Positions 13,966 through 27,630 of a stretch of DNA of 64,000 nt are shown one piece after another. Both the position numbers and the translations under genes were made by a program. A model generated the notes under the pieces. It saw only the letters and a list, made by a program, of their open reading frames with translations. It was not told the DNA's origin and did no database searches. The stretch comes from Candidatus Moraniibacteriota bacterium (GTDB taxonomy: Bacteria > Patescibacteriota > Minisyncoccia > Moranbacterales > JAPLXC01): positions 1,193 to 65,192 of the forward strand of contig JAPLXC010000004.1 of the NCBI GenBank assembly GCA_026396275.1, written 5' to 3'. Every line of letters begins with the position of its first letter. The first letter of the stretch is position 1.

Positions 13966-14014
13966 TTTCGCAGTGGGCACACCAAGATTCGAACTTGGGA
14001 CCTCGTCATTATCA

Positions 14015-14157
14015 GCTTGCCCCGCACTAAAATTCAATCTTTGTTTATACTTTTAGTGGGCGATGGAAGACTCGAACTTCCGACCTCGTCATTATCAGTG
14101 ACGCGCTCTAACCAACTGAGCTAATCGCCCAAATACTTCTTGAATTTTTAGTGCGGG
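14015..14157 (-). mobile_element. CCCG...CGGGGCAAGC palindromic element carrying a tRNA
   Basis: Inverted arms ccccgcactaaaattcaa / ttgaatttttagtgcgggg enclose the inner tRNA. Confidence 0.75.
14057..14130 (-). tRNA. tRNA-Ile(GAT), intact, nested in the interrupted tRNA-Ile
   Basis: GGGCGATTAGCTCAGTTGGTTAGAGCGCGTCACTGATAATGACGAGGTCGGAAGTTCGAGTCTTCCATCGCCCA, full cloverleaf. Confidence 0.95.
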
Positions 14158-14216
14158 GTGAACGCTCTATGCCTGCCGGCAGGCAGGTAACCAACTGAGC
14201 TATGTGCCCTTATCCG

Positions 14217-14289
14217 TGGACCGTGCCGGAATCGAACCGGCTGCCTCCGCAGTGCAAATGCGGCGCTCTACCAGGTGAGCTAACGGCCC
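14217..14289 (-). tRNA. tRNA-Ala(TGC)
   Basis: GGGCCGTTAGCTCACCTGGTAGAGCGCCGCATTTGCACTGCGGAGGCAGCCGGTTCGATTCCGGCACGGTCCA; G3:U70 pair. Confidence 0.95.
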
Positions 14290-14365
14290 TGCGAGAGGCT
14301 TATACTTAATAAAATAACACTAAAAGCTATTATAACCAATTTTTTCAATTTGTCCAGATCCCAAT

Positions 14366-14393
14366 TTGACAAAAAATCTGCTTATTATACAAT
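14366..14393 (+). promoter_or_regulatory. Sigma70-like promoter for secE-nusG
   Basis: TTGACA-16-TACAAT. Confidence 0.55.
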
Positions 14394-14515
14394 AATGTAA
14401 AAGCCCTCGGGGCTTTTTAAAAAAGGGCATAATCTCGAAACCCGCAACCTGAAACCTAAAAATCAACATATCAATATGTTTGAATCCAAATGGTTACAGG
14501 TTACAGGCTACAGGA

Positions 14516-14704
14516 ATGATTAATAAAGTTGTCACATTTATAAAAGAAGCACGGATTGAACTGAAAAAAGTTAACTGGCCGTCAAAAAAGCAAACTATTA
14601 ACTACACACTGATAGTTATTGGAATAAGCTTGGCAGTAGCGGCTTTTTTGGGAGGGCTGGATTATGTGTTTGGATATTTATTGAAGGTATTTATTATCAA
14701 ATAG
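14516..14704 (+). CDS. secE: Preprotein translocase SecE
   Basis: ELKKVNWPS + one TM; start moved to ATG 14516 because upstream is repeat DNA. Confidence 0.93.
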   Translation: MINKVVTFIKEARIELKKVNWPSKKQTINYTLIVIGISLAVAAFLGGLDYVFGYLLKVFIIK

Positions 14705-14799
14705 ATAACTCGAATATCCCGAAAAATTAAACCGAATGACCCGAAAATTTTTTCGAATCATTCGGGTAATAATTCGCAGATTCGGGTTATATTACAAAA

Positions 14800-15345
14800 A
14801 TGGCGAAGCAAACGCAACATCACGGAAGAGCTTGGTATGTAATCCATACTTATTCCGGATATGAAGATAACGTCTCGCGCAATTTGCGCCAGCGTATTGA
14901 ATCAATGGATATGCAGGATTTGATTTTTGACGTGATTGTGCCTAAGGAAAAGAAGATTAAGATTAAAAACGGAAAAAGGGCAGTAATTGAAGAAAGAATT
15001 TATCCCGGCTATGTTCTGGTAGAAATGATCGTGACTGATGCTTCCTGGTACGTGGTGCGCAATACTCCTAATGTAACCGGCTTTATTGGATTGGGAACAA
15101 CTCCGACGCCGGTTGATCCAAAAGAAATAGAACTGCTCAAAAAGCGGATGGGCGTGGCCGAGCCGAAATACAAGATTGACGTGAAGCCGGGAGACGCCGT
15201 GAAAATAAATGATGGACCGTTTAAAGATTTTGACGGTAAAATTCAGGAAGTTGACGAGGAAAAAGGAAAAATCAAAGTGCTAGTATCGATATTTGGAAGA
15301 GAAACACCGGTAGAATTGGACTTTTTACAGGTGAAGAAGATTTAG
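14800..15345 (+). CDS. nusG: Transcription factor NusG
   Basis: WYVIHTYSGYE, YPGYVLV, KOW, FGRETPVELDF. Confidence 0.97.
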   Translation: MAKQTQHHGRAWYVIHTYSGYEDNVSRNLRQRIESMDMQDLIFDVIVPKEKKIKIKNGKRAVIEERIYPGYVLVEMIVTDASWYVVRNTPNVTGFIGLGTTPTPVDPKEIELLKKRMGVAEPKYKIDVKPGDAVKINDGPFKDFDGKIQEVDEEKGKIKVLVSIFGRETPVELDFLQVKKI

Positions 15346-15356
15346 TAGGTATGGCT

Positions 15357-15468
15357 ATCCCGCACCAATTCCGAACATAGTTTTACGTAAAGTAAAGTTA
15401 TATCCACGGAATCGCCTGCGGCTTAGTTCTGGTAATTATTAAATTTTTACAATGAATTAGTGCGGGAT
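15357..15468. mobile_element. 112 bp element with 15 bp terminal inverted repeats (CCCGCAC family)
   Basis: atcccgcaccaattc ... gaattagtgcgggat, one mismatch. Confidence 0.65.
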
Positions 15469-15507
15469 GCTCATTTTTTTAGCTACTCACTACGCTCATA
15501 GACAAAA

Positions 15508-15930
15508 ATGGCAAAGAAAATCAAAACAGTGGTAAAATTGCAAATTCCAGCCGGAAAAGCTACTCCAGCTCCTCCTATTGGGCCGGCCTTAGGCCAGCAT
15601 GGACTGAATATCCAGGATTTTTGCGTGAAATTTAACGAAAAGACAAAAGACAAAGGAGAAGATGTTATTCCAGTGGAAATCACCATTTACGAGGACCGGA
15701 CTTTTGAATTTATTATGAAAACTCCTCCGGCGGCGGAACTTCTCAAAAAAGCGGCTGGCATTGAAAAAGGAGCGGCTAATCCCTTGAAAGACAAGGCGGG
15801 AAAAGTGACCAAAGAGCAAATTCGCCAAATTGCCCAAACCAAAATGGCCGATCTTAATGCCAATGATATTGAAGGAGCGGAAAAAATTGTAGAAGGGACG
15901 GCAAGGAGCATGGGGATAAAAATAGAGTAA
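15508..15930 (+). CDS. rplK: 50S ribosomal protein L11
   Basis: [30 protein letters not shown]. Confidence 0.98.
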
Positions 15931-15931
15931 T

Positions 15932-16011
15932 TCTCTACGAAGTACGAACGCCTACGAAACTACGAAAATATAAATTAAAGTTCGTAATTTCGTAAATTTC
16001 GTAATTTGTAG
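15932..16011. repeat. Inverted pair of TACGAA-type tandem arrays
   Basis: four tacgaa units followed by ttcgta units. Confidence 0.8.
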
Positions 16012-16020
16012 ACACATCGT

Positions 16021-16695
16021 ATGAAACGCGGAAAGAAGTATAAAACTGTCGCGGAAAAAATTGATAAGAATAAATCTTATCCTATTGATGAGGCGGTTAA
16101 GCTTGTCAGGGAAAAAAAAATCGCCAAATTCGATGAATCAGTCGAAATTCATATTAAGCTTTCCATTGATACCAAAAAGGGCGAAGAGCAAGTGCGGGGA
16201 ACTGTAGTTCTTCCTCACGGAACGGGAAAAAGCAAAAAGGTGGCGGTCATTACTTCAACCAAGGTAAGGGAAGCCAAAGATGCAAAAGCGGATATTGTCG
16301 GTGGCGAAGAAATGATAACCAAACTAAAAAGCGGAAAATTCAACTTTGATGTTTTAGTAGCCACTCCCGAAATGATGCCGCGCCTGGCTTCAATCGCCAA
16401 GATTCTGGGACCCAAGGGACTGATGCCCAGCCCCAAAACGGAAACCGTTACGGAAAAAGTGAAAGAAACAGTAGAAATGCTTAAAAAAGGAAAAGTCAAT
16501 TTCAAAAACGATGACACTGGAAACATCCATCAAATAATCGGCAAAGTTTCTTTTACTGAGGAGCAGCTCAAAGGAAATTTTGAAGCATTTCTGGAAGCAG
16601 TTAAAAAAGCAAAACCAGCTACAGTGAAAGGAAAATTTATTAAGTCAATTTCAGTTTGTTCCACAATGGGCCCGGGAATTAAAATTGGGATATAG
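16021..16695 (+). CDS. rplA: 50S ribosomal protein L1
   Basis: KFDESVE, RGTVVLPHGTGK, LGPKGLMP.PK, STMGPG. Confidence 0.97.
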   Translation: MKRGKKYKTVAEKIDKNKSYPIDEAVKLVREKKIAKFDESVEIHIKLSIDTKKGEEQVRGTVVLPHGTGKSKKVAVITSTKVREAKDAKADIVGGEEMITKLKSGKFNFDVLVATPEMMPRLASIAKILGPKGLMPSPKTETVTEKVKETVEMLKKGKVNFKNDDTGNIHQIIGKVSFTEEQLKGNFEAFLEAVKKAKPATVKGKFIKSISVCSTMGPGIKIGI

Positions 16696-16716
16696 AATTA
16701 AGAATTATAGATATGC

Positions 16717-16742
16717 AAAAAGATGCTTGAAAGCATCTTTTT
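16717..16742. terminator. Bidirectional intrinsic terminator after rplA
   Basis: aaaaagatgctt-ga-aagcatcttttt. Confidence 0.75.
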
Positions 16743-16749
16743 AAATTTG

Positions 16750-16809
16750 TTGACATTTATGATTTAATATTTTAGGATGTTATGAAGCTCTTTAAAATAA
16801 AAGGGAGGT
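16750..16809 (+). promoter_or_regulatory. Promoter + boxA-like motif + strong SD
   Basis: TTGACA-17-TAGGAT, GCTCTTTAAAA (16787), GGGAGGT. Confidence 0.65.
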
Positions 16810-16814
16810 AAAAA

Positions 16815-17831
16815 ATGAATATAAAGGTAAGGAAGATAAGGGAAGATGCTAAAGTTCCAATTAGGGCATCTGATGGTGCAGTAGGATATGATGTTTTTGC
16901 TTCAAGGGTACTGGATAAATTTACCAAGGAAGTAATTCAGGATTTGCCGGTAGAAATACTTGGTGGCGCTAGTGTATTAATCGGTATTGGAGTAAAAATG
17001 GCTGTGCCCTGGCCGTATGAGTGCCAAGTTAGACCCAGGAGTGGTCTTGCGAGTAAATTTGACATCGAACTTTCTAATTCTCCAGGAACAATAGATCCCG
17101 ACTTCAGGGGCGAAGCAGGTGTTCTTTTGAGAAATAGAGGAAAAGAAACTTTTGTTGTGGAAAAGAATATGAGAATTGCTCAATTAATTTTCTCTAAAGT
17201 CGAAATCCCGATTTTAGAAGAAACGAAAGAGCTCCCTGCAACTAGGAGGGGAACTGGCGGTTTTGGATCAACAGGACTTCATGGAGATGGATTAGGGACT
17301 GATGAATATAATGAATACATAAAAGAAATGGATAGGTATTATATGAGAGTGGTTCTTGCAGTAGCGGATCGCTCCACATGTGTCAGGGGGGTAAAAAAAG
17401 TAAATGGTAAATATGAAAGAGATAAAAAGGGAAAATTGGTTGGCCAGAATCGCAGATTCGGTTGTGTGATTGTGAAGAATGATAATATCCTTGCTCAAGG
17501 TTTTAATGACCAATATTACGGTTCTCCAAAATGTGCTGACGCAGGATGTTTGAGGGAGGAGTTGAATATTCCCTCTGGTACGCAAATTGAAAAATGCAGA
17601 GCAATGCATGCCGAGTGGTGGGCATTCACTAATGCAGGTAAAATGGATAGCTCGCCGACACTTAAAGGTGCTACTGTCTATGTCAATGCGGAACCATGCG
17701 AAATATGCGCAAAGATGATTGTTGGTTTTGAGATTGATACAGTTGTTTTACTAAAAGGTATTTATCCAACTAATGGCATCAGGATTTTAAAAGAAGGAGG
17801 AGTGAATATAAGGTATATTGAAATTAATTAA
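16815..17831 (+). CDS. dUTPase - dCMP deaminase fusion protein
   Basis: N-half: GYD, RPRSGLA, GTIDPDFRGE, RIAQL, RGTGGFGSTG; C-half: HAE and PCEIC Zn deaminase motifs. Confidence 0.9.
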   Translation: MNIKVRKIREDAKVPIRASDGAVGYDVFASRVLDKFTKEVIQDLPVEILGGASVLIGIGVKMAVPWPYECQVRPRSGLASKFDIELSNSPGTIDPDFRGEAGVLLRNRGKETFVVEKNMRIAQLIFSKVEIPILEETKELPATRRGTGGFGSTGLHGDGLGTDEYNEYIKEMDRYYMRVVLAVADRSTCVRGVKKVNGKYERDKKGKLVGQNRRFGCVIVKNDNILAQGFNDQYYGSPKCADAGCLREELNIPSGTQIEKCRAMHAEWWAFTNAGKMDSSPTLKGATVYVNAEPCEICAKMIVGFEIDTVVLLKGIYPTNGIRILKEGGVNIRYIEIN

Positions 17832-17839
17832 GACCTAGA

Positions 17840-17873
17840 AAGGCTCTTAGTTTGAATAAACTAAGAGCTTTTT
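17840..17873 (+). terminator. Intrinsic terminator
   Basis: ggctcttagttt-gaat-aaactaagagct-tttt. Confidence 0.75.
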
Positions 17874-17944
17874 CCTTTATTAAGCCGTTTTTTGACAAGT
17901 TTGGCTAAAGGCGGTACAATGAAATAACTGATTACTAACTTCCT

Positions 17945-18469
17945 ATGGCTAAAAAAGCTTTAAAAAAGAAAAATAAAAAGAGCGAGGAAAAGTATATTCG
18001 TCCGTCTTGGGATGAGTATTTTTTAGATCTAGTAGAAGCTGTTGGAAAAAGAGCTACCTGTGATAGAGGGAGAACAAGCTGTATAATTGTTCGCGAAAAA
18101 AGAATTCTTTCCACCGGTTATGTCGGTTCACCAATCGGAGCCAAGCACTGCGACGATGCGGGGCATGAGATACACACGGTTATCCAAGAGGATGGCACTC
18201 AATCTCGGCATTGCATCAGAACCAGCCACGCGGAGCAGAATGCTATTGCCAATGCTGCCAGATTCGGTATGCCTCTGGAAGGCGGAACACTTTATGCCCA
18301 TATGGCTCCCTGCTACACTTGCGCCAAAATGATTATAAACTCCGGGATAAAAAGAGTGGTCTGCCGGGTTGATTATCATGGCGCCAAACGCGCTAAAGAA
18401 ATTTTCAAGGAATGCGGGATTGAATTTGAACAGATTGAAGATAAAATGCAAACTTATAAAGATATGTAA
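17945..18469 (+). CDS. dCMP deaminase (ComEB-like)
   Basis: RPSWDEYF, RATCDR, HAEQNAI, PCYTC. Confidence 0.92.
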   Translation: MAKKALKKKNKKSEEKYIRPSWDEYFLDLVEAVGKRATCDRGRTSCIIVREKRILSTGYVGSPIGAKHCDDAGHEIHTVIQEDGTQSRHCIRTSHAEQNAIANAARFGMPLEGGTLYAHMAPCYTCAKMIINSGIKRVVCRVDYHGAKRAKEIFKECGIEFEQIEDKMQTYKDM

Positions 18470-18531
18470 TTCAAACGTACTACTTTTTCTGGTGTATGCT
18501 AAAAAAGCAGCACGCTTACAAAAAGTCAAAA

Positions 18532-19083
18532 ATGAGAAAAATAATCGCCATACTTGGATTACCCGGAGCTGGTAAAACCGAAGTTATAAATTATCTTATA
18601 AAAAAATACAACTGGCCGAAAGTTTATTTTGGCGATGTTACTTTTGATGAAGTTAAAAGGCGCGGATTGGAAATAAATGAGAAAAATGAAAGAACGGTGC
18701 GAGAAGATTTGCGCGCAAAATATGGAAGGTTGCATTATGCGTCGCAGGTAATAAAAAAGATTGAAGCGTTGCCGTCCGACACAAATGTCCTTGTGGAGAG
18801 TTTATACGACTGGAGGGAATATCTTTTTTTCAAAGAAAAATTTGGAAAGGAATTTATGACAATTGCGACTTATGCTTCGCCTGAAACTAGGTATGAGAGG
18901 CTGTCAAAAAGGCCAGAAAGGCCATTGACTCCGGAAGTAGCCCAAAGCCGGGATTATGCTCAAATTGAGAATCTTTTTCAAGCCGGACCAATTGCGATGG
19001 CGAATTATACCATAAATAATGAAGGTACATTTGAAGAACTTTATAGTCAGGTTGATGAGATAATAGAAAATATAAATAAATGA
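18532..19083 (+). CDS. P-loop nucleotide kinase (dephospho-CoA/NMP kinase-like)
   Basis: [15 protein letters not shown] lid; start moved to 18532. Confidence 0.75.
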
Positions 19084-19874
19084 AACAATATCTAGATTTA
19101 TTGCAAAAAATAATGGAAGAAGGGGTTAACAAAGAAAATAGAACCGGTATTGATACAAGAAGTATTTTTGGTTATCAATTGCGTTTTAATCTGGAAGAAG
19201 GATTTCCGCTTCTTACGACCAAAAAAATGCATCTGAAGTCCATTATTCACGAACTAATTTGGTTTTTGAAAGGCGAAACGAATATAAAATATCTTCACGA
19301 CAATGGAGTAACGATCTGGGACGAGTGGGCGAATGAAAAAGGGGAACTCGGTCCGGTTTATGGCTATCAATGGCGGCACTGGAAAAAATATGAGGGAGGG
19401 GAAGTTGACCAGATCAGCGAGGCGATTGAAAAAATAAAAAACAAGCCAAATGACCGAAGAATAATAGTGAGCGCCTGGAATGTTGGGGAAATTGAAAAAA
19501 TGGCGCTCCCTCCCTGCCATTTATTATTTCATTTTTATGTAGCCGATGGAAAATTATCCTGTCTAATGTATCAGCGAAGCTGTGATACTTTTCTGGGAGT
19601 GCCGTTCAATATTGCATCTTATGCACTTCTTACTATGATGTTTGCGCAGGTTTGCAGTTTGAAACCGGGAGAATTCGTACATATTTTGGGTGATACCCAT
19701 ATCTATCATAATCATTTTGATCAAGTGAAACTGCAATTAAGCCGGGAACCAAAAAAACTGCCGACTATGAAAATCAATCCGAAAGTGAAAAATATTTTTG
19801 ATTTTAAATACGAAGATTTTACACTGGAAGGATATGATCCCCATCCGGCGATTAAAGCGCCAATCGCGGTTTAG
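19080..19874 (+). CDS. thyA: Thymidylate synthase ThyA
   Basis: NRTG, MALPPCH, YQRSCD.FLGVPFN, GDTHIY. Confidence 0.97.
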
Positions 19875-19877
19875 AAA

Positions 19878-19935
19878 TGTCACTCCGGGCTTGATCCGGA
19901 ATCTAATTAGATTCTGAAACAAGTTCAGAATGACA
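19878..19935. repeat. GTCATTCC-family palindromic element
   Basis: tgtcactccgggcttgatccggaatc...ttcagaatgaca. Confidence 0.8.
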
Positions 19936-19947
19936 TATTAAAATGTA

Positions 19948-20436
19948 ATGAAATCGACTATCTCTATCATCGCAGCTATTGCCGAAAAAAATCGGGCTAT
20001 CGGCAAAGATAATAAATTGCTTTGGCATATTCCGGAAGACCTAAGACGTTTTAAAAATCTCACCACTGGACACGCAATAATAATGGGGCAAAAAACTTTT
20101 GAGTCGCTTGGAAAACCTCTGCCAAACCGCACCAATATTGTTATTTCGAACAATCCCGATTTTAATCCCCAAAATGTTATTGTGACAAGATCAATTGAAG
20201 AATCTCTGAAAAAAGCTAGGGAAATAGAGAAAGAAGAAATATTTATTTGTGGCGGAGGATTAATTTACCGACAATTTCTACTACTGGCTGACAAATTGTA
20301 TTTAACTATTATTGAAGGAAACTTTGAAGCTGATACTTTTTTTCCAGATTATTCGGAGTTTAGTAAAATTGTTAAAGAAGAAAAAAGTTCAGATGAGAAA
20401 TATAATTATAAATTTGTGGAGTTAGTCAGAGAATAA
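19948..20436 (+). CDS. folA: Dihydrofolate reductase
   Basis: IGKDNKLLW.IPEDL..FK, PLPNR.NIV, GGG.IY, DTFFP. Confidence 0.95.
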   Translation: MKSTISIIAAIAEKNRAIGKDNKLLWHIPEDLRRFKNLTTGHAIIMGQKTFESLGKPLPNRTNIVISNNPDFNPQNVIVTRSIEESLKKAREIEKEEIFICGGGLIYRQFLLLADKLYLTIIEGNFEADTFFPDYSEFSKIVKEEKSSDEKYNYKFVELVRE

Positions 20437-20440
20437 AAAT

Positions 20441-21055
20441 ATGAAAAAAAACAAGAAACGGAGATTGTTCATTGTCTTTGAAGGACTTGATGGTTCCGGC
20501 CAGACAACGCAAATAAACTTATTAGAAAAATATCTAAAATTAAAAGGAAAAAAAGTGCATATGACAGCTGAACCATCAAGCAGTTTAATTGGCGGATTAA
20601 TTCGGGCAGTTTTGACGCATCATTGGAAATTGAGCAACACCGGATTACAGCTTCTCTATTGCGCTGACAGGGCGCATCATCTTGAAACAGAAGTGTACCC
20701 GGCGCTTGCGAAAGGAAATATCGTGTTATCAAGCCGCTACTTTTTTTCAACCATCGCCTTTGGCTCTTTGAATAATGACACTAGATGGCTGGAAAAAATC
20801 AATGAAAAATTTCCAAAACCTGATGTCACTTTTTTCATCAATGTTTCTCCAAAAGAGTGCATTAAAAGATTAGATCTTTCAAGATTCAGAAAAGAAATTT
20901 TTGAAAAGGAGGAAAAAATGGGAAAGGTCTTAAGAACCTATATTAAAATAGGTAAAAACAAAAAATATAAAAATTTCTTTACTATCAACGGGGAACAGCC
21001 CGTCGAAAAAATTTCACAGGATGTAATTAAAATTATTGACAAATTTATTAGATAA
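20441..21055 (+). CDS. tmk: Thymidylate kinase
   Basis: FEGLDGSGQTTQ, AEP, LLYCADR..H, PKPD. Confidence 0.88.
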   Translation: MKKNKKRRLFIVFEGLDGSGQTTQINLLEKYLKLKGKKVHMTAEPSSSLIGGLIRAVLTHHWKLSNTGLQLLYCADRAHHLETEVYPALAKGNIVLSSRYFFSTIAFGSLNNDTRWLEKINEKFPKPDVTFFINVSPKECIKRLDLSRFRKEIFEKEEKMGKVLRTYIKIGKNKKYKNFFTINGEQPVEKISQDVIKIIDKFIR

Positions 21056-21129
21056 TATTACACTAAAAAGCCGATAATTTTGTAAGGAAGAAATAAAAGC
21101 TTTTTGAAAATTTAAGGAGGTGGGAGAAG

Positions 21130-21852
21130 ATGATTTTTGAAGATAGTAATACTGTTATGGTTAATGGCCGGATTGATGATGGTTACAGAGAAGCAATGCT
21201 TCTTTGCGTGAGAAATGGCTGGGATTTTGTAGTAAAAGGCGGGAGTTATGTCGGGCAAATTAGAAAACAGTTGGAAAATGTCCAGATAATAATAGGGGAT
21301 CCGAGTAAAAGACCGCTGGCTCCAGTTTTGCCGCCTGGAATTCCCGCCAGTACCAGTGATGAAAAAATAGATAAATATTTTGCCGAATATCTGATGAGCA
21401 CCGAGGTCAAAGAAAATGAGGAATATACCTATGGCACCTACATTGTTCCACAAGTTCCGAAAATAATCGAAATATTGAATAAGGCAAAAGGAAACACTAA
21501 TCAGGCCTGCATAAGCATCGGGGATATTAATTCAATTAATCTTCCTGATCCACCCTGTTTAAAGCTTATAAGCTTTAAGGTTGTAAAAGGAAAATTGATT
21601 ATGACAGTTTTTTTTAGATCTTGGGACTTATATGCAGGTCTGCCAGAAAATCTGGGAGGGCTGCAACTACTCAAAGAATTTGTTTTTGCTCATCTCGATT
21701 TTGAGTGCTCTGACGGGAAAATGATTGCTTATAGCGACGGGCTTCACCTCTATGAACAGTACTTTGATTTAGTAAATGTTCTGAATGTGGATAAAGTTGT
21801 TATTAGCAAAATAGCGGCAAAAGATAAGGAGGAATTTTCAAAAACTCTTTAG
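21130..21852 (+). CDS. Second, divergent (archaeal-like) thymidylate synthase-fold protein
   Basis: YTYG, DPPCL, FRSWD..AGLPEN, GLHLY; own promoter (21036-21064) and SD. Confidence 0.8.
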   Translation: MIFEDSNTVMVNGRIDDGYREAMLLCVRNGWDFVVKGGSYVGQIRKQLENVQIIIGDPSKRPLAPVLPPGIPASTSDEKIDKYFAEYLMSTEVKENEEYTYGTYIVPQVPKIIEILNKAKGNTNQACISIGDINSINLPDPPCLKLISFKVVKGKLIMTVFFRSWDLYAGLPENLGGLQLLKEFVFAHLDFECSDGKMIAYSDGLHLYEQYFDLVNVLNVDKVVISKIAAKDKEEFSKTL

Positions 21853-21934
21853 TTGCAAAAAGGTCGACATCCGTCGGCCTTTATTTTTTTGACCAGTATG
21901 ATAAGATAAAATTGATTTGAAGACAAGCCATTTT

Positions 21935-22474
21935 ATGAAAAGGAGAAATATCGAAGTTGAAATTAGGAGTTTTATTTCCAAAGAGGAATATGATGAATTA
22001 CTGAAATTTTTTGAAGAGAGAGGAAAGCTAATTAGCAAAGACAAGCAGGAAACTTATTATTTTAAAGGACTGTGGGATCTGCGGATCCAAAAGAATAATT
22101 TTTATTCAAAGATCTGGTTCAAGAAAGGAAAAATTCATGACGACTTCCGGGAAGAAATTGAAATAAAATTTGATAGCGGTGATTTTAATGAATTAAAAAA
22201 ATTGTTTGATGCTCTTGGTTATAAGGTCGATATAAAATGGCTGCGAACTAGACATACTTTCAGATGGCAGGGAATTACAGTAACAGTTGATTTTACCAAA
22301 GGATACGGCTATATTATTGAGCTGGAAAAAATGACAAGGAGAATAGAAAAGGAAAAAGTAGTCAAGCTACTAAAAGGAAAGTTAAAAATGCTTAGCATTC
22401 GAGAAACGCCGCGGGAGGTGTTTGAGAAAAAATTTCAGTTTTATAAGAAGAATTGGGAAAAACTAGCCAAATGA
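21935..22474 (+). CDS. CYTH-domain (CyaB/triphosphate tunnel) protein
   Basis: EVEIR (ExExK/R), LRI, REEIEI, IELE. Confidence 0.8.
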   Translation: MKRRNIEVEIRSFISKEEYDELLKFFEERGKLISKDKQETYYFKGLWDLRIQKNNFYSKIWFKKGKIHDDFREEIEIKFDSGDFNELKKLFDALGYKVDIKWLRTRHTFRWQGITVTVDFTKGYGYIIELEKMTRRIEKEKVVKLLKGKLKMLSIRETPREVFEKKFQFYKKNWEKLAK

Positions 22475-22896
22475 AAATTTTTGTCAAAAAACTTGAGCCC
22501 GAGGCAAAGATTCCTTCCTACGCCCATCCCGGAGACGCCGGAATGGATTTGTATTCTCTGGAAAACGTGAATATAAAACCAGGAGAAAGAGTTTCTTGCC
22601 GAACCGGAATTGCGATACAAATCCCGGGTGGCTATGCCGGGCTCATTTGGGACAAAAGCGGAATTGCTTGGAATGGTGGAATTAAAACAGTAGCAGGAGT
22701 AATTGACAGTGGTTATCGGGGTGAAGTCGGAATTGTTCTTGTTAATTTAGGTCATAAAGATTATAAAATAAACAAAGGCGACAAGATTGCCCAAATGCTT
22801 ATACAGAAAGTTGAGGATCCGGAAATTATTGAAGCAGAGAACCTAGAAGAAAGTGCCAGGGGCAACGGAAGATTTGGAAGCACAGGAGTAAGCTGA
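22471..22896 (+). CDS. dut: dUTP diphosphatase
   Basis: DAGMDL, DKSG, GVIDSGYRGE, IAQ, RG.GRFGSTG. Confidence 0.95.
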   Translation: MKIFVKKLEPEAKIPSYAHPGDAGMDLYSLENVNIKPGERVSCRTGIAIQIPGGYAGLIWDKSGIAWNGGIKTVAGVIDSGYRGEVGIVLVNLGHKDYKINKGDKIAQMLIQKVEDPEIIEAENLEESARGNGRFGSTGVS

Positions 22897-22902
22897 AATA
22901 AT

Positions 22903-22992
22903 ATGAAATACATATCAGTAATAGGAATGGAAGTCCACCCTGTAAAGTCACGAGGCATGACCACGGGGCAAGTATTGAACTTATATGAGTAA
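22903..22992 (+). pseudogene. Relic gatB 5' end broken by a 35 nt insertion
   Basis: MKYISVIGMEVH-[35 nt]-IEL, matching GatB start KYKATIGMEVHVEL directly downstream. Confidence 0.8.
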
Positions 22993-24490
22993 ATACAAAG
23001 CCACAATTGGCATGGAGGTTCATGTCGAGCTCAAAACAAAGAGCAAGATGTTTTGTGATTCTAAAAACGCGATGGGAGAGGAAAAAAAGCCCAACGTTCA
23101 TATCTGCCCGGTTTGCACGGGCCAGCCCGGCACTCTTCCGGTTCCCAATCGCCAGGCAATAGAATTTGTGCAGCTGGCCGGGTTAGCATTGAATTGCGAA
23201 ATTGCAAAAGAATCCAAATTTGACCGCAAAAATTATTTTTATCCCGATCTTCCCAAGGGCTACCAAATTTCACAGTACGATCAGCCGTTATGTAGAAGTG
23301 GAAAATTAGAAATGGGGAGCGGGAAGATTATCGGAATTACGAGGATTCACTTAGAAGAAGATACGGGAAAATTAATACACCCCGTAAAATCGCTTCGCGA
23401 TAACGGGGCAAGCCCCGCCGGGGCAGGTTATACTTTAGTAGATTTTAACCGGGCTGGAGTGCCACTTATGGAACTAGTGACGGAACCGGATATTGAATCC
23501 GGAGCCGAGGCGCGATTATTTTGTCAAAAACTCCAGCAAATTTGCCGCTATCTTGAAATTTCCGAAGCCGATATGGAAAAAGGGCACATGCGCTGCGAAG
23601 CTAACATCTCGCTATACAAAGAAGGCGAAAATAAGCTAAGTGGAGTTAAAGTGGAAGTAAAAAATATCAACTCTTTCAAGTTTGTTGAGAAAGCTATTGA
23701 TTATGAAATTAAAAGACAAACTGAAATTTTAGAGAAAGGTGAAAAAGTAATTCAGGAAACTAGAGGCTATGACAGCAACAAAAATATTACTGTATCCCAG
23801 CGAACCAAAGAATCAGCTCATGATTACCGCTACTTTCCCGAACCAGATATTCCGCCACTGAAGTTTACTGAAGATTATATTAATAACTTGCGCGCTAAAC
23901 TCCCGGAACTTCCCGATGCCAAAAAGAAAAGATTAATCGCGGAATATAATTTATCTTCGGAAAATGTTGAGGTAATAGTCAGCGATAAGGGTTTGGCGGA
24001 TTACTTTGAACAGGTAGTTTCAGAAATTAAAGAAAAAAGGGAAAGCAGTGAAGTATGTGCGGATGAAAATAAATGCGTTAAACTTTCGGCCAACTATATC
24101 GTCAGCGAACTGCAAAAGCATCTGATTCGCGACGGGGTGACGGTTAGGGACATAAAAATCACTCCGGAAAACTACGCGGAACTTGTAGGTTTTATCGCGG
24201 ATGGGAAGATAAGTTCCAGTGCTGCCCAGACAGTCCTTGAAGAAATGTACAAAACCGGCGGAGATCCATCACAGATAATCAAGGCCAAAAACTTGGCCCA
24301 AGTCAGCGATGAAAGTGAGTTAGACAAAACTATCCAACAGGTGCTTGACAAAAATACTCAATCAATGGAGGATTATAAAAAGGGGAAAGCCAATGCGTTG
24401 CAGTTTTTGATAGGCCAAGTAATGGCAAAAACCGGCGGCCGGGCTAATCCCAAAATGGTGGCAAAAATACTAAAAATTAAATTGAACTAA
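22985..24490 (+). CDS. gatB: Asp/Glu-tRNA amidotransferase subunit B
   Basis: GMEVH, FDRKNYFYPDLPKGYQISQ, DFNRAG.PL.E, DYRYFPEPD. Confidence 0.97.
   Translation: MSKYKATIGMEVHVELKTKSKMFCDSKNAMGEEKKPNVHICPVCTGQPGTLPVPNRQAIEFVQLAGLALNCEIAKESKFDRKNYFYPDLPKGYQISQYDQPLCRSGKLEMGSGKIIGITRIHLEEDTGKLIHPVKSLRDNGASPAGAGYTLVDFNRAGVPLMELVTEPDIESGAEARLFCQKLQQICRYLEISEADMEKGHMRCEANISLYKEGENKLSGVKVEVKNINSFKFVEKAIDYEIKRQTEILEKGEKVIQETRGYDSNKNITVSQRTKESAHDYRYFPEPDIPPLKFTEDYINNLRAKLPELPDAKKKRLIAEYNLSSENVEVIVSDKGLADYFEQVVSEIKEKRESSEVCADENKCVKLSANYIVSELQKHLIRDGVTVRDIKITPENYAELVGFIADGKISSSAAQTVLEEMYKTGGDPSQIIKAKNLAQVSDESELDKTIQQVLDKNTQSMEDYKKGKANALQFLIGQVMAKTGGRANPKMVAKILKIKLN
23381..23413 (+). mobile_element. 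33 nt CCCG...CGGGGCAAGC element in frame in gatB
   Basis: cac|cccgtaaaatcgcttcgcgataacggggcaagc|cccgcc; adds PVKSLRDNGAS. Confidence 0.75.
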
Positions 24491-26066: not shown

Positions 26067-27440
26067 TTATGATAAAATTCCCTCTAAATTCCAAATGTTA
26101 GCTTTAATAATTTTAATTTTGACAAATTTGCCAACGAGATTTTTTTGAGCGCTTTTAAATTTTACATTCTTCATTGTTCTGGTTCTGCCGAAATAAAATC
26201 CATCTTTTTGGCTGTCTATTATGACTTTAAATATTTTTCCCAAATAATTTTTATTATTCTCAAATGCCGTAATTTTCAGAATTTCATTCAAAAATTTTTC
26301 CCGCCTTTCTTTTTCTTTTTTGGAAACATTATCTTTCATCTTCCAAGCGGCGGTTCCCGGGCGGGGAGAAAATTGGCCAAAGTAAACCATATCATATTTG
26401 ACTTTTCTCATAATTTCAGCGGATTTGGCAAATTGTTTTCTGGTTTCCCCGGGAAAACCAACAATTATGTCAGAGGTTATCGCATATAAAACTCCCGGCT
26501 TGTATTTAGTAAACGCGGATTTAATTTTTTTAATCAGTCCCGGATAATGTCTGGCCGTATAGTTTCTGTTCATTCTTCTTAGTATTTCGTCGTCTCCGGC
26601 CTGGATGGGAAGATGCACATATTCACAAACTTTTTCGCATTTAGCAATTGTCTTAATCAATTCATCTGACATATCTTTCGGGTGGCTGGTTAGAAAATGA
26701 ATCCAGAAATTGCCGGAGATAGCATTTATTTTTTTAAGAAGCTTGGAAAAGTTTATTTTTCTATAATTATAAGAATTCGCGTTTTGTCCAAGTAAAATAA
26801 TTTCTTTATATCCCTTTTTCACTAAAACTCTGACTTCCTTAATAATTTCCTTTGCCGGACGGGAAATTTCCCTCCCTCGGGCATAGGGGACAACGCAATA
26901 AGAGCAAAAGTTGTTGCAGCCGGTCATGATCGGCACGAAGGCAGAATATTTTGTGTTGTATTTTGGCTCAATGTTTAGGTAATTGTCATTGCGAGGGAGC
27001 CCGTCAAAGGCGGATAAACTCCGCGACCGTGGTAATCCTGTAGATTTATCATCATTTAAATTATCTAGAGATTGCTTCCACCGCCAAGGTGAGGTCGCAA
27101 TGACAGACAAAATTTTTTCCGGGAATTCTTTTATTCCACAAAACAAATCAACTTTATCTTTTAACCTTCTCTGCACATCTTTTCTATTTGCCAAGCACCC
27201 GGTTAAAACAATAATCTTTTTTGTTCTATGTTTTGTGTTCCATGTTGTAAGATTATGTATTTGTCCATAAACCCGATCCTCTGCGCTTTGGCGCACGCCG
27301 CAGGTGTTGAAAATCACCAGATTGGCCTCATTGATATTTTTCCCTGGCTTAAATTTATGCAATTCCAAAAATGCCGCAATTCGTTCAGAATCGCTATAAT
27401 TCATCTGACAACCAAAGGTTTTAATAAAATATTTTTTCAT
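26067..27440 (-). CDS. miaB: tRNA methylthiotransferase MiaB
   Basis: TFGCQMN, NTC, GC, CNNFCSYC radical-SAM motif, TRAM C-terminus. Confidence 0.93.
   Translation of the reverse strand: MKKYFIKTFGCQMNYSDSERIAAFLELHKFKPGKNINEANLVIFNTCGVRQSAEDRVYGQIHNLTTWNTKHRTKKIIVLTGCLANRKDVQRRLKDKVDLFCGIKEFPEKILSVIATSPWRWKQSLDNLNDDKSTGLPRSRSLSAFDGLPRNDNYLNIEPKYNTKYSAFVPIMTGCNNFCSYCVVPYARGREISRPAKEIIKEVRVLVKKGYKEIILLGQNANSYNYRKINFSKLLKKINAISGNFWIHFLTSHPKDMSDELIKTIAKCEKVCEYVHLPIQAGDDEILRRMNRNYTARHYPGLIKKIKSAFTKYKPGVLYAITSDIIVGFPGETRKQFAKSAEIMRKVKYDMVYFGQFSPRPGTAAWKMKDNVSKKEKERREKFLNEILKITAFENNKNYLGKIFKVIIDSQKDGFYFGRTRTMKNVKFKSAQKNLVGKFVKIKIIKANIWNLEGILS
26984..27105. repeat. GTCATTGCGA-family element in frame in miaB
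   Basis: tgtcattgcga...tcgcaatgaca inverted ends. Confidence 0.85.
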
Positions 27441-27450
27441 TCAATTTATA

Positions 27451-27517
27451 TGTCATTCCGGACTCCAATCCGGAATCTAGTTAATTTTACTGGATTCCCG
27501 CCTGCGCGAGAATGACA
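27451..27517. repeat. GTCATTCC-family palindromic element
   Basis: tgtcattccgg...gaatgaca. Confidence 0.8.
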
Positions 27518-27630
27518 GTTAAAATTGCTTGACAGCTAAAGGTTTTGATGAAATACTTCATGGAAGTTTCTTTAACAAACAAGTATTCATTAGGATACTT
27601 AATAATAAAACTAAAATCAAGGGAGGATAA

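Follow-up and report, generated by a model that had tools for sequence, protein, structure and literature searches.

The closest described system to the elements reported here is that of SsnA, a GIY-YIG nuclease of 94 amino acids (aa; CDD cd10448) that cuts single-stranded DNA (ssDNA) on the upstream side of an oriented hairpin (Chenal et al. 2025, PMC11893778). SsnA depends on the C that directly follows the stem, also acts when the stem is assembled from two separate pieces, and modulates transformation; in the accessible part of their paper the authors also remark on an insertion sequence (IS)-like NTS-ssnA-NTS arrangement, for which a mobile origin is suggested there, not shown (PMC11893778). 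Natural competence has been reported for Saccharibacteria in the accessible text of another study (PMC10187176). In this study we describe a family of short hairpin elements with the ends CCCCG...CGGGGCAAG, three members of which lie in a 64,000-nt stretch of a Candidatus Moraniibacteriota genome (contig JAPLXC010000004.1; 'the window' means this whole stretch): one is inserted in a tRNA gene and two in gatB. These three inserts are real features. We consider them to be non-autonomous hairpins, likely gene-less offshoots of GIY-YIG cassettes, that would be mobilised by small Ssn-like nucleases together with host recombination and would arrive with replacement parts; we give this reading, which leans on analogy with SsnA, a probability of roughly 0.55.

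The window belongs to an 810-kb genome of 22 contigs that is 99.67% complete by markers. The inserts are set among a tRNA pair, a nusG-rplK-rplA group (genes that we take to be these from their motifs), a nucleotide-metabolism cluster and gatB. Our samples comprised 151 genomes of the order, a 401-genome sample of the phylum, metagenome loci and viral contigs. G000 denotes the genome of the window (the own genome below), other G numbers denote relative genomes, L numbers loci, and X1 and X2 public sequencing runs, either of which may be the source sample of the assembly; runs with small shares are uninformative on habitat. An earlier note on the same DNA had pointed to all three inserts, and they are indeed present at 14016-14158 on the minus strand (143 nt with CAAG), 22938-22972 (35 nt) and 23380-23412 (33 nt). 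The features are the following:

13974..14015, minus strand: 3' half of a broken tRNA-Ile, running from the anticodon loop to the acceptor end and present once in the genome.
14016..14158, minus strand: 143-nt cassette of class A, with left arm CCCCGCACTAAAA, an intact tRNA as cargo, and right arm TTTTAGTGCGGGG plus CAAG.
14056..14130, minus strand: intact tRNA-Ile(GAT) inside the cassette; 3 acceptor and 2 T-stem pairs are different in the broken copy, each with pairing preserved.
14159..14209, minus strand: 5' half of the broken tRNA-Ile, with acceptor and D arm and reaching as far as the anticodon stem; its acceptor strand pairs fully with the 3' half.
14169..14188, minus strand: separate 20-nt palindromic D-loop insert in the broken tRNA, another repeat type with its core present three times in the genome.
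22903..22937, plus strand: stranded original gatB start, 11 codons and 2 nt, of the N-terminal type seen in most relatives.
22938..22972, plus strand: 35-nt hairpin element of class B, CCCTGTAAA...ACGGGGCAAG, frame-breaking.
22973..22984, plus strand: 10 nt in which the GatB reading of the stranded start goes on, followed by 2 nt up to the fresh ATG.
22985..24490, plus strand: intact gatB with replacement start, 501 aa, matching Pfam GatB_N and GatB_Yqey.
23380..23412, plus strand: 33-nt hairpin element of class B that lengthens a GatB loop by 11 residues without a frame shift.

The family falls into two classes. Class A elements (CCCCGCACYA...TRGTGCGGGG) mostly measure 60-140 nt and often enclose a tRNA, as in the tRNA insert here; class B, to which both gatB inserts belong, has the arms CCCCGTAAA...ACGGGG, a length of 27-57 nt and an inner hairpin. 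The window holds three copies of the right-end 9-mer CGGGGCAAG; the mean of shuffles is 0.47, and 2 of 100 shuffles reach three, so that enrichment within the window is weak evidence. A genome-wide search, which had been proposed as a check, found the motif well beyond random: there are 17 copies against 4-5 expected under Markov models of order 3-5, a paired CCC-type left arm accompanies 12 of them, and arms pair within 400 nt in 21 cases, where 10 shuffles give 2-6. With the own genome counted, the class B pattern is found in 19 of the 151 order genomes and in 5 of the 401 phylum-sample genomes, the reversed-pattern control giving 0 in both. It occurs in at least 123 metagenome loci, and no copy was found in the viral contigs. 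The interiors amount to 132 different sequences among 137 dereplicated copies and fold better than shuffles. Hence the description in the earlier note, of a dispersed and oriented non-autonomous element with variable, hairpin-forming interiors and no mobiliser in the window, stands.

The largest number of class B copies, 27, was seen in G078 (7 further right-end sites were also fetched). An autonomous burst in this genome was rejected, as most copies hitchhike within a larger repeat or within 8-mer tandem repeats. A repeat of ~110 nt with a class B element is present in many copies in L079 and other G078 loci, where it abuts a gene of 325 aa that we presume to be IS30-like (Pfam matches its helix-turn-helix only). 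Several other relatives of the elements were noted as well. One class B copy in the own genome (C7:20039-20073), ending in CAGA, is inserted without a frame shift into a pgk-like gene, and a decayed left end (C14:83619) lies in a pseudouridine-synthase gene at a codon that is also struck in L049; the names of both genes are partly our assumption. L375, L393 and L395 (G684) contain dense mosaic arrays of CCCCGT/ACGGGG arms with CAAG flanks. A 110-nt element with the related arms TCCCGCAC...GTGCGGGA lies between nusG and rplK (window 15358-15467), and a similar copy with similar flanks is found at C21:12529-12622 of the own genome.

The junctions take the form A, element, mostly C. In the order sample the base before the stem is A in 52 of 56 copies (25 of 29 without G078). 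The fixed target TNCAC that had been proposed was not found: TNCA precedes 10 of the 137 dereplicated sites against 6.7 expected, TTCA precedes 3 against 2.5, and the commonest preceding 5-mer accounts for 8 sites only. We noted a loose target bias (GGYGA, 15 against 1.0 expected). TTCA is often the outer end of a cassette arm itself, and its presence outside cassette left arms accounts for much of the TTCAC reported before. As to the right end, given earlier as CGGGGCAAGY, CGGGGCAAG holds and the fixed Y does not, the base after CAAG being C at 77 of the 137 sites (20 expected), T at 32 (37 expected), G at 16 and A at 12. The absence of target duplication is upheld, with duplications of at least 3 nt at 4 of 151 sites and a shuffled mean of 5.9. 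The boundary can slide by one base when C follows CAAG; one site is clearly informative, the gatB relic of G002, which regains its conserved Met only if the boundaries are placed after A and after CAAG. Long open frames contain 42 of the 151 sites; the element length there is divisible by three in 32 cases, of the form 3n+2 in 8 and of the form 3n+1 in 2. These last ten need an extra base or a nearby indel to keep the frame. Among the other 109 sites the length is divisible by three in 56. Pairing between flank and element, in one linear register only, reached 187 against 187.6 when shuffled. A choice of the target by its folding was rejected, since empty sites fold no better than controls.

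The insert in the body of gatB can be compared directly with its empty site. In all 29 relatives compared (the sequences fetched out of 60 searched genomes) the loop is empty and has the restored length. Two distant gatB genes, in L208 and L209, have a 33-nt copy after the same His codon position, so that this is a recurrent site; recurring sites in conserved genes of relatives also bear out the claim that such genes are hit repeatedly. A contig of X2 bridges the insert with 0 differences, X1 shows one variant inside the element that probably belongs to another locus, and no strain-level empty sites were seen in the public runs.

At the start of gatB the situation is different in kind, as the element separates a stranded original start from a complete gene with a start of its own. 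When the insert is removed, an open GatB start of 15 codons is obtained, and a contig of X1 bridges the locus with 0 differences. The same gatB layout is seen in G002, which belongs to another family; there both the element and the codon are different. When 166 sites were screened for this layout, 13 reached a score of at least 30, all in the element's orientation, and five swapped controls gave 0-2. We analysed 11 of these sites, in lepA (1), uvrB (2), uvrA (2), dnaE (4) and gatB (2); the names dnaE and uvrA are backed by Pfam on L033 and L040, and lepA and uvrB are partly our assumption. L233 (a near-identical tandem copy), L158 (weak, with the ATG 114 nt away) and L154 (found later) were left out. 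Of the mismatches between the two starts, 21 fall on first, 14 on second and 74 on third codon positions (p 1e-13); this concentration at third positions indicates that the two starts are separately evolved alleles, although several of the 11 sites, struck at the same codon, may share descent from one event. The fresh ATG lies 11-15 nt past CAAG in 8 of the 11 sites.

Which of the two starts is foreign is suggested by G002 and its sister G013 (tree support 94/86). From the conserved Met on, the fresh copy of G002 equals G013 at 8 of 8 codons, against a background of 47% per codon along the gene; its first codons differ from G013, and it is the stranded copy that has the N-terminal type of G013. 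Therefore the foreign part is short and the gene body is native. The simplest reading of the layout, drawn from this pair and from L154, is that of one inserted piece which would consist of the element, a few bases of the old type and a short foreign start, and which recombination would place in such a way as to leave the body native and the gene never lost. In the whole-protein GatB tree the placement of the own protein was not resolved and we therefore claim no donor lineage; the first alignment window of GatB is closer to family f6, resting on ~16 residues. A promoter scan at gatB gave 1 match against 1.4 expected. A further case was found in the window with another hairpin: a miaB-like gene (27440-27561, minus strand; domains radical SAM, UPF0004 and TRAM) has a stranded start of 11 codons, an NTS/SRM-like hairpin doublet at 27451-27517 with a near-consensus NTS repeat, and a fresh start. 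This suggests that the layout is a general product of GIY-YIG-linked hairpins. At L039:1-1494 (minus strand) a lepA-like GTPase bears a PDDEXK_3 nuclease domain in frame at residues 89-202 in addition to the dead-start layout.

The tRNA-Ile nest (window 13974-14209, minus strand) repeats this theme with a whole gene as the replacement. The insert holds a complete tRNA-Ile(GAT), overlooked before, which is the sole intact Ile(GAT) among the 47 tRNAs called in the genome. All pairs that differ between this tRNA and the broken one are still complementary, which implies that both copies were once functional. Once emptied, the broken gene is one base short in the anticodon stem, with one substitution there, and carries the 20-nt D-loop insert; the claim that removal of the inserts cleanly restores the host thus holds for both gatB inserts but not for the tRNA. 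No contig piece among the matches listed bridges the nest. Its exact junction was not found in 120 relatives, where 8 other matches were due to chance, and in L178 a class B copy has independently entered the anticodon arm of a tRNA-Ile on the other strand. Of 8 tRNA cassettes examined in the own genome, 4 (Ile, Val, Gly, Ser-TGA) clearly interrupt a relic of the tRNA that they carry and 1 does so partly (Ser-CGA); strict homology of cargo and target was rejected as a general rule for these 8. The Val cassette has six extra bases, including TTCA, that are not host-derived. In the same genome 5 of 8 GIY-YIG matches lie directly upstream of a tRNA, several of them after a hairpin-broken tRNA start. 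These five (C5:20729, C8:19991, C3:7497, C10:2250 and C14:71788) have a stop codon that overlaps the start of the intact tRNA.

Longer elements with the same type of arms contain a candidate enzyme. Exact class A arms 260-320 nt apart were found four times in 201 genomes; three of the matches enclose a Pfam GIY-YIG gene of 84 aa and the fourth is a tRNA nest. CCCCGT...ACGGGG arms enclose a GIY-YIG gene in 6 of 10 matches, with only 6-8 paired bases in 3 of the other 4, and the reversed control of this search gave 6 matches. The GIY-YIG profile used for these class B cassettes was built from relatives of three of them; two are also Pfam matches. The cassettes measure ~280 nt, and the genes within the arms encode 84-87 aa. 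Inverted repeats bracket 57 of 80 relatives of the nuclease against 0 of 77 control pairs, with a CCCYG core in 25 of the 57. These bracketing repeats commonly have TTCA as the outer neighbour of the left arm and TAAA or TGAA as that of the right arm, a place that often contains the stop codon. Among G001-G150, 3 of the 4 genomes with a class B cassette also hold class B mini-elements against 18 of 150 overall (p 0.005; three families, small n). At C20:43489 the own genome has an 84-aa GIY-YIG gene between related arms, followed by ACAAG. L130 combines cassette and layout, as a stop-interrupted GIY-YIG gene in inverted arms lies there inside a dead gene start with a fresh start after it. Long elements with these arms hold GIY-YIG genes or tRNAs and never Y1. 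The best solved relatives of the cassette proteins are UPF0213 proteins.

The own genome also contains hairpins of another kind: 41 SRM-like sites, a family separate from the CCCCG elements, an SRM-flanked GIY-YIG gene of 96 aa (C14:23158-23445), and an SRM-like hairpin doublet in the window (19879-19936) between thyA and the next gene. In the protein tree the SRM-flanked pair groups at 100%, apart from the cassette proteins; the deep nodes are without support.

How could such elements move? The GIY-YIG domain is a hydrolytic nuclease, so the joining step must be that of host enzymes. In our reading a cassette nuclease would cut incoming or displaced ssDNA beside the stem, and host recombination and ligation during DNA uptake would place the cut piece, which would often bring a working replacement for the interrupted tRNA or gene start. 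As element and replacement would arrive in one step, an essential gene would never be without a working copy, and selection would keep insertions that are in frame, intergenic or self-repairing. An invariant C follows the stem in these elements, as SsnA needs, and by analogy with SsnA the cassette nucleases may bind or cut these hairpins; incoming ssDNA would be the vehicle, and a ComEC gene is present in the genome. More tentatively, and with considerable doubt, one could see here a class of transposase-free mobile DNA, in which an 84-residue GIY-YIG ssDNA nuclease encoded in a stem loop would drive its own cassette and gene-less hairpins of 30-150 nt through natural transformation, bringing foreign starts and tRNAs into essential genes, swapping alleles and adding loop peptides across the Candidate Phyla Radiation (CPR).

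A number of observations weigh against the origin of the inserts from GIY-YIG cassettes, or against parts of the scheme. None of the 80 relatives of the nuclease lies in a cassette ending in CGGGGCAAG, and between ACCCYG and CGGGGCAAG at a distance of 260-330 nt no GIY-YIG gene was found in 14 matches (201 order genomes) and 21 matches (151 class genomes); almost all of these 35 are chance pairs, and one at L375, a locus selected by pattern, lies just upstream of a GIY-YIG cassette. Scanning 173 loci with flanks of 0.5-1.5 kb gave no GIY-YIG gene near class B copies, and a CAAG mini-element lies close to a GIY-YIG gene in only 2 of the 124 loci that were not selected by CAAG (L123, L323). In the own genome no nuclease cassette was found with exact arms of class A or class B, and its protein at C20:43489 groups with the class A cassette proteins at 64% support only. 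The cassette proteins are only 29-41% identical to two SRM-flanked Ssn-like proteins, which makes the chemistry of SsnA an extrapolation for them. One of the 8 tRNA cassettes lies in the relic of a different tRNA (read as Glu) and 2 are without a recognisable relic, the distinction of foreign and native starts comes from one genome pair (G002/G013), and the copies of G078 were largely carried along by other repeats, one of them beside the IS30-like gene. Finally, the precise, duplication-free junctions would be more easily explained by an enzyme with strand-transfer activity.

One alternative is an HUH Y1 transposase, which the earlier note had favoured. A TnpA- or RAYT-like protein would act in trans, peel the hairpin off ssDNA and paste it beside a short target; in this case the GIY-YIG genes would be mere cargo of the same ends. 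The lack of duplication, the strict orientation and the A before the stem (52 of 56) would suit such an enzyme, as would hot spots that recur at one codon, and Y1 genes are present in the own genome and in 4 of the 5 others checked. However, there is no fixed tetranucleotide target, the flanks show no guide complementarity to the element beyond the shuffled level in the register given above, and it is GIY-YIG genes or tRNAs that the long elements with CCCCG arms contain. The two RAYT-like Y1 genes of the own genome (C19:3276-3926 and C7:68133-68804) have their own unrelated palindromes around and inside the gene, and neither these nor 12 further loci in four other copy-bearing genomes are bracketed by CCCCG arms; Y1 transposases as carriers are rejected for the 14 loci seen, and a Y1 enzyme acting in trans appears improbable to us. 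A different answer to the missing CAAG-ended GIY-YIG cassette is that the CAAG-ended subfamily is served by another nuclease of these genomes, the likeness of the arms reflecting old common descent only. The genomes do hold many repeat families beside other small proteins, but clustering of the reading frames around class B copies returned housekeeping targets only and no recurring neighbour enzyme, and the own genome lacks reverse transcriptase and IS110 and has one sub-threshold match to DUF559. We hold this explanation to be unlikely as well.

It might also be asked whether a dedicated enzyme is needed at all, if hairpins derived from uptake were patched in by illegitimate or homologous recombination and selection kept the in-frame, intergenic and self-repairing events. 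The presence of ComEC, the loose target and the 10 of 42 in-frame copies that need an extra base or nearby indel fit such a process, and selection would by itself leave a frame bias and replacement copies. Fixed ends around 132 interiors, a fixed orientation and an ATG that mostly lies 11-15 nt past the same end speak instead for an enzyme that reads the ends, and the arms are conserved around nuclease genes; for these reasons recombination without such an enzyme seems to us a poor candidate. As the genome was assembled from a metagenome, the tRNA nest is unbridged among the matches listed and the motif test within the window is weak, an assembly artefact or a chance motif had to be considered too. 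This is largely refuted and extremely improbable: each relic sequence occurs only once, its differences from the intact copy being compensatory or synonymous, contigs span both gatB inserts with 0 differences, and the same layouts are found in many other assemblies.

If the origin from GIY-YIG cassettes were true, the cassette nuclease would be the smallest mobilising enzyme of a REPIN-like element and would work with a different chemistry, that of a nuclease and not of a transposase, and the open hypothesis of mobile nuclease-hairpin units in the Ssn paper would become testable. One process would then explain three traits of CPR genomes: nested tRNAs, gene starts that are present twice with synonymous differences, and the short peptides inserted in housekeeping proteins. 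Annotators should then beware of false starts and pseudo-tRNAs. Small ssDNA nucleases whose cognate hairpins can be read from the sequence would also form a large pool.

Other features of the window were noted in passing. The nucleotide-metabolism cluster (16815-22896) encodes a dUTPase-deaminase fusion of 338 aa, a second deaminase, a second dUTPase and a CYTH protein, together with a canonical thymidylate synthase and, at 21130-21852, a highly divergent second protein resembling this enzyme (E 1.6e-7). Inverted arrangements of short tandem-repeat arrays occupy intergenic positions (14415-14520, 14708-14790 and 15935-16012), and 7-9-mer tandem-repeat families dominate the over-represented 12-mers of the genome.

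How do these elements compare with known ones? Islands that target tRNA genes, and e14 in the icd gene of E. coli, are kilobase elements with an integrase and att sites that restore the end of the gene they strike. They are alike in that a working but diverged replacement stands next to a displaced relic of the target end. The unit here spans only ~50-150 nt and may include an entire tRNA; a tyrosine or serine integrase and an att core are absent from the units, which are either gene-less (33-143 nt) or enclose GIY-YIG only. Classical miniature inverted-repeat transposable elements of DDE transposases differ in that no duplication is present here and the ends are asymmetric (A before, CAAG after). 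In the literature covered, in which subscription journals are sparse, we found no account from CPR of GIY-YIG cassettes bracketed by arms, of nested tRNAs or of replacement starts linked to hairpins. Insertions with GIY-YIG in rRNA genes of CPR that are not introns resemble our elements in being scattered over poorly conserved sites, with many short insertions that have no open reading frame; the accessible part of that study gives no inverted arms, gene-less family or cases in tRNA or protein genes (PMC11270868). Rickettsia palindromic elements likewise survive in frame in unrelated protein genes, and as far as the accessible text goes they are ~150 nt long with a conserved peptide (PMC10969869), whereas here the inserts have 27-57 nt and a hypervariable interior, the long form carries a tRNA, and replacement starts come along.

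With REPINs and their RAYTs (Bertels and Rainey 2011, PMC3116915) and with IS200/IS605 our family shares, by what is accessible of these accounts, the build of a non-autonomous hairpin with two inverted ends around a spacer, the lack of duplication and the idea that one enzyme gene would serve many copies. A Y1 gene at the same ends and a fixed target of 4-5 nt were not found. The REP ends of REPINs are themselves palindromes of at least 16 nt, mostly extragenic and adjoining a Y1 HUH gene, according to the accessible text (PMC3116915); the CCCCG arms have 6-13 nt, pair only with each other, often lie in frame in genes and are linked to GIY-YIG instead of Y1. The Ssn system remains the nearest in our view. 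Its NTS/SRM consensus is unlike the CCCCG arms, a full hairpin lies on each side of the gene where here two half-arms close one stem around a gene or tRNA, and 2% of NTS lie inside genes where many CCCCG copies do, again by the accessible part of the paper (PMC11893778); insertions with empty orthologous sites and replacement parts were seen here. A single-domain GIY-YIG protein of ~90 aa flanked by its repeat, one mark of Ssn membership, is found for the arm cores and not for the CAAG end. What both systems have in common, within the same accessible text, is a single-domain GIY-YIG protein below 100 aa, oriented hairpin repeats that are also dispersed alone, and a C after the stem (PMC11893778).

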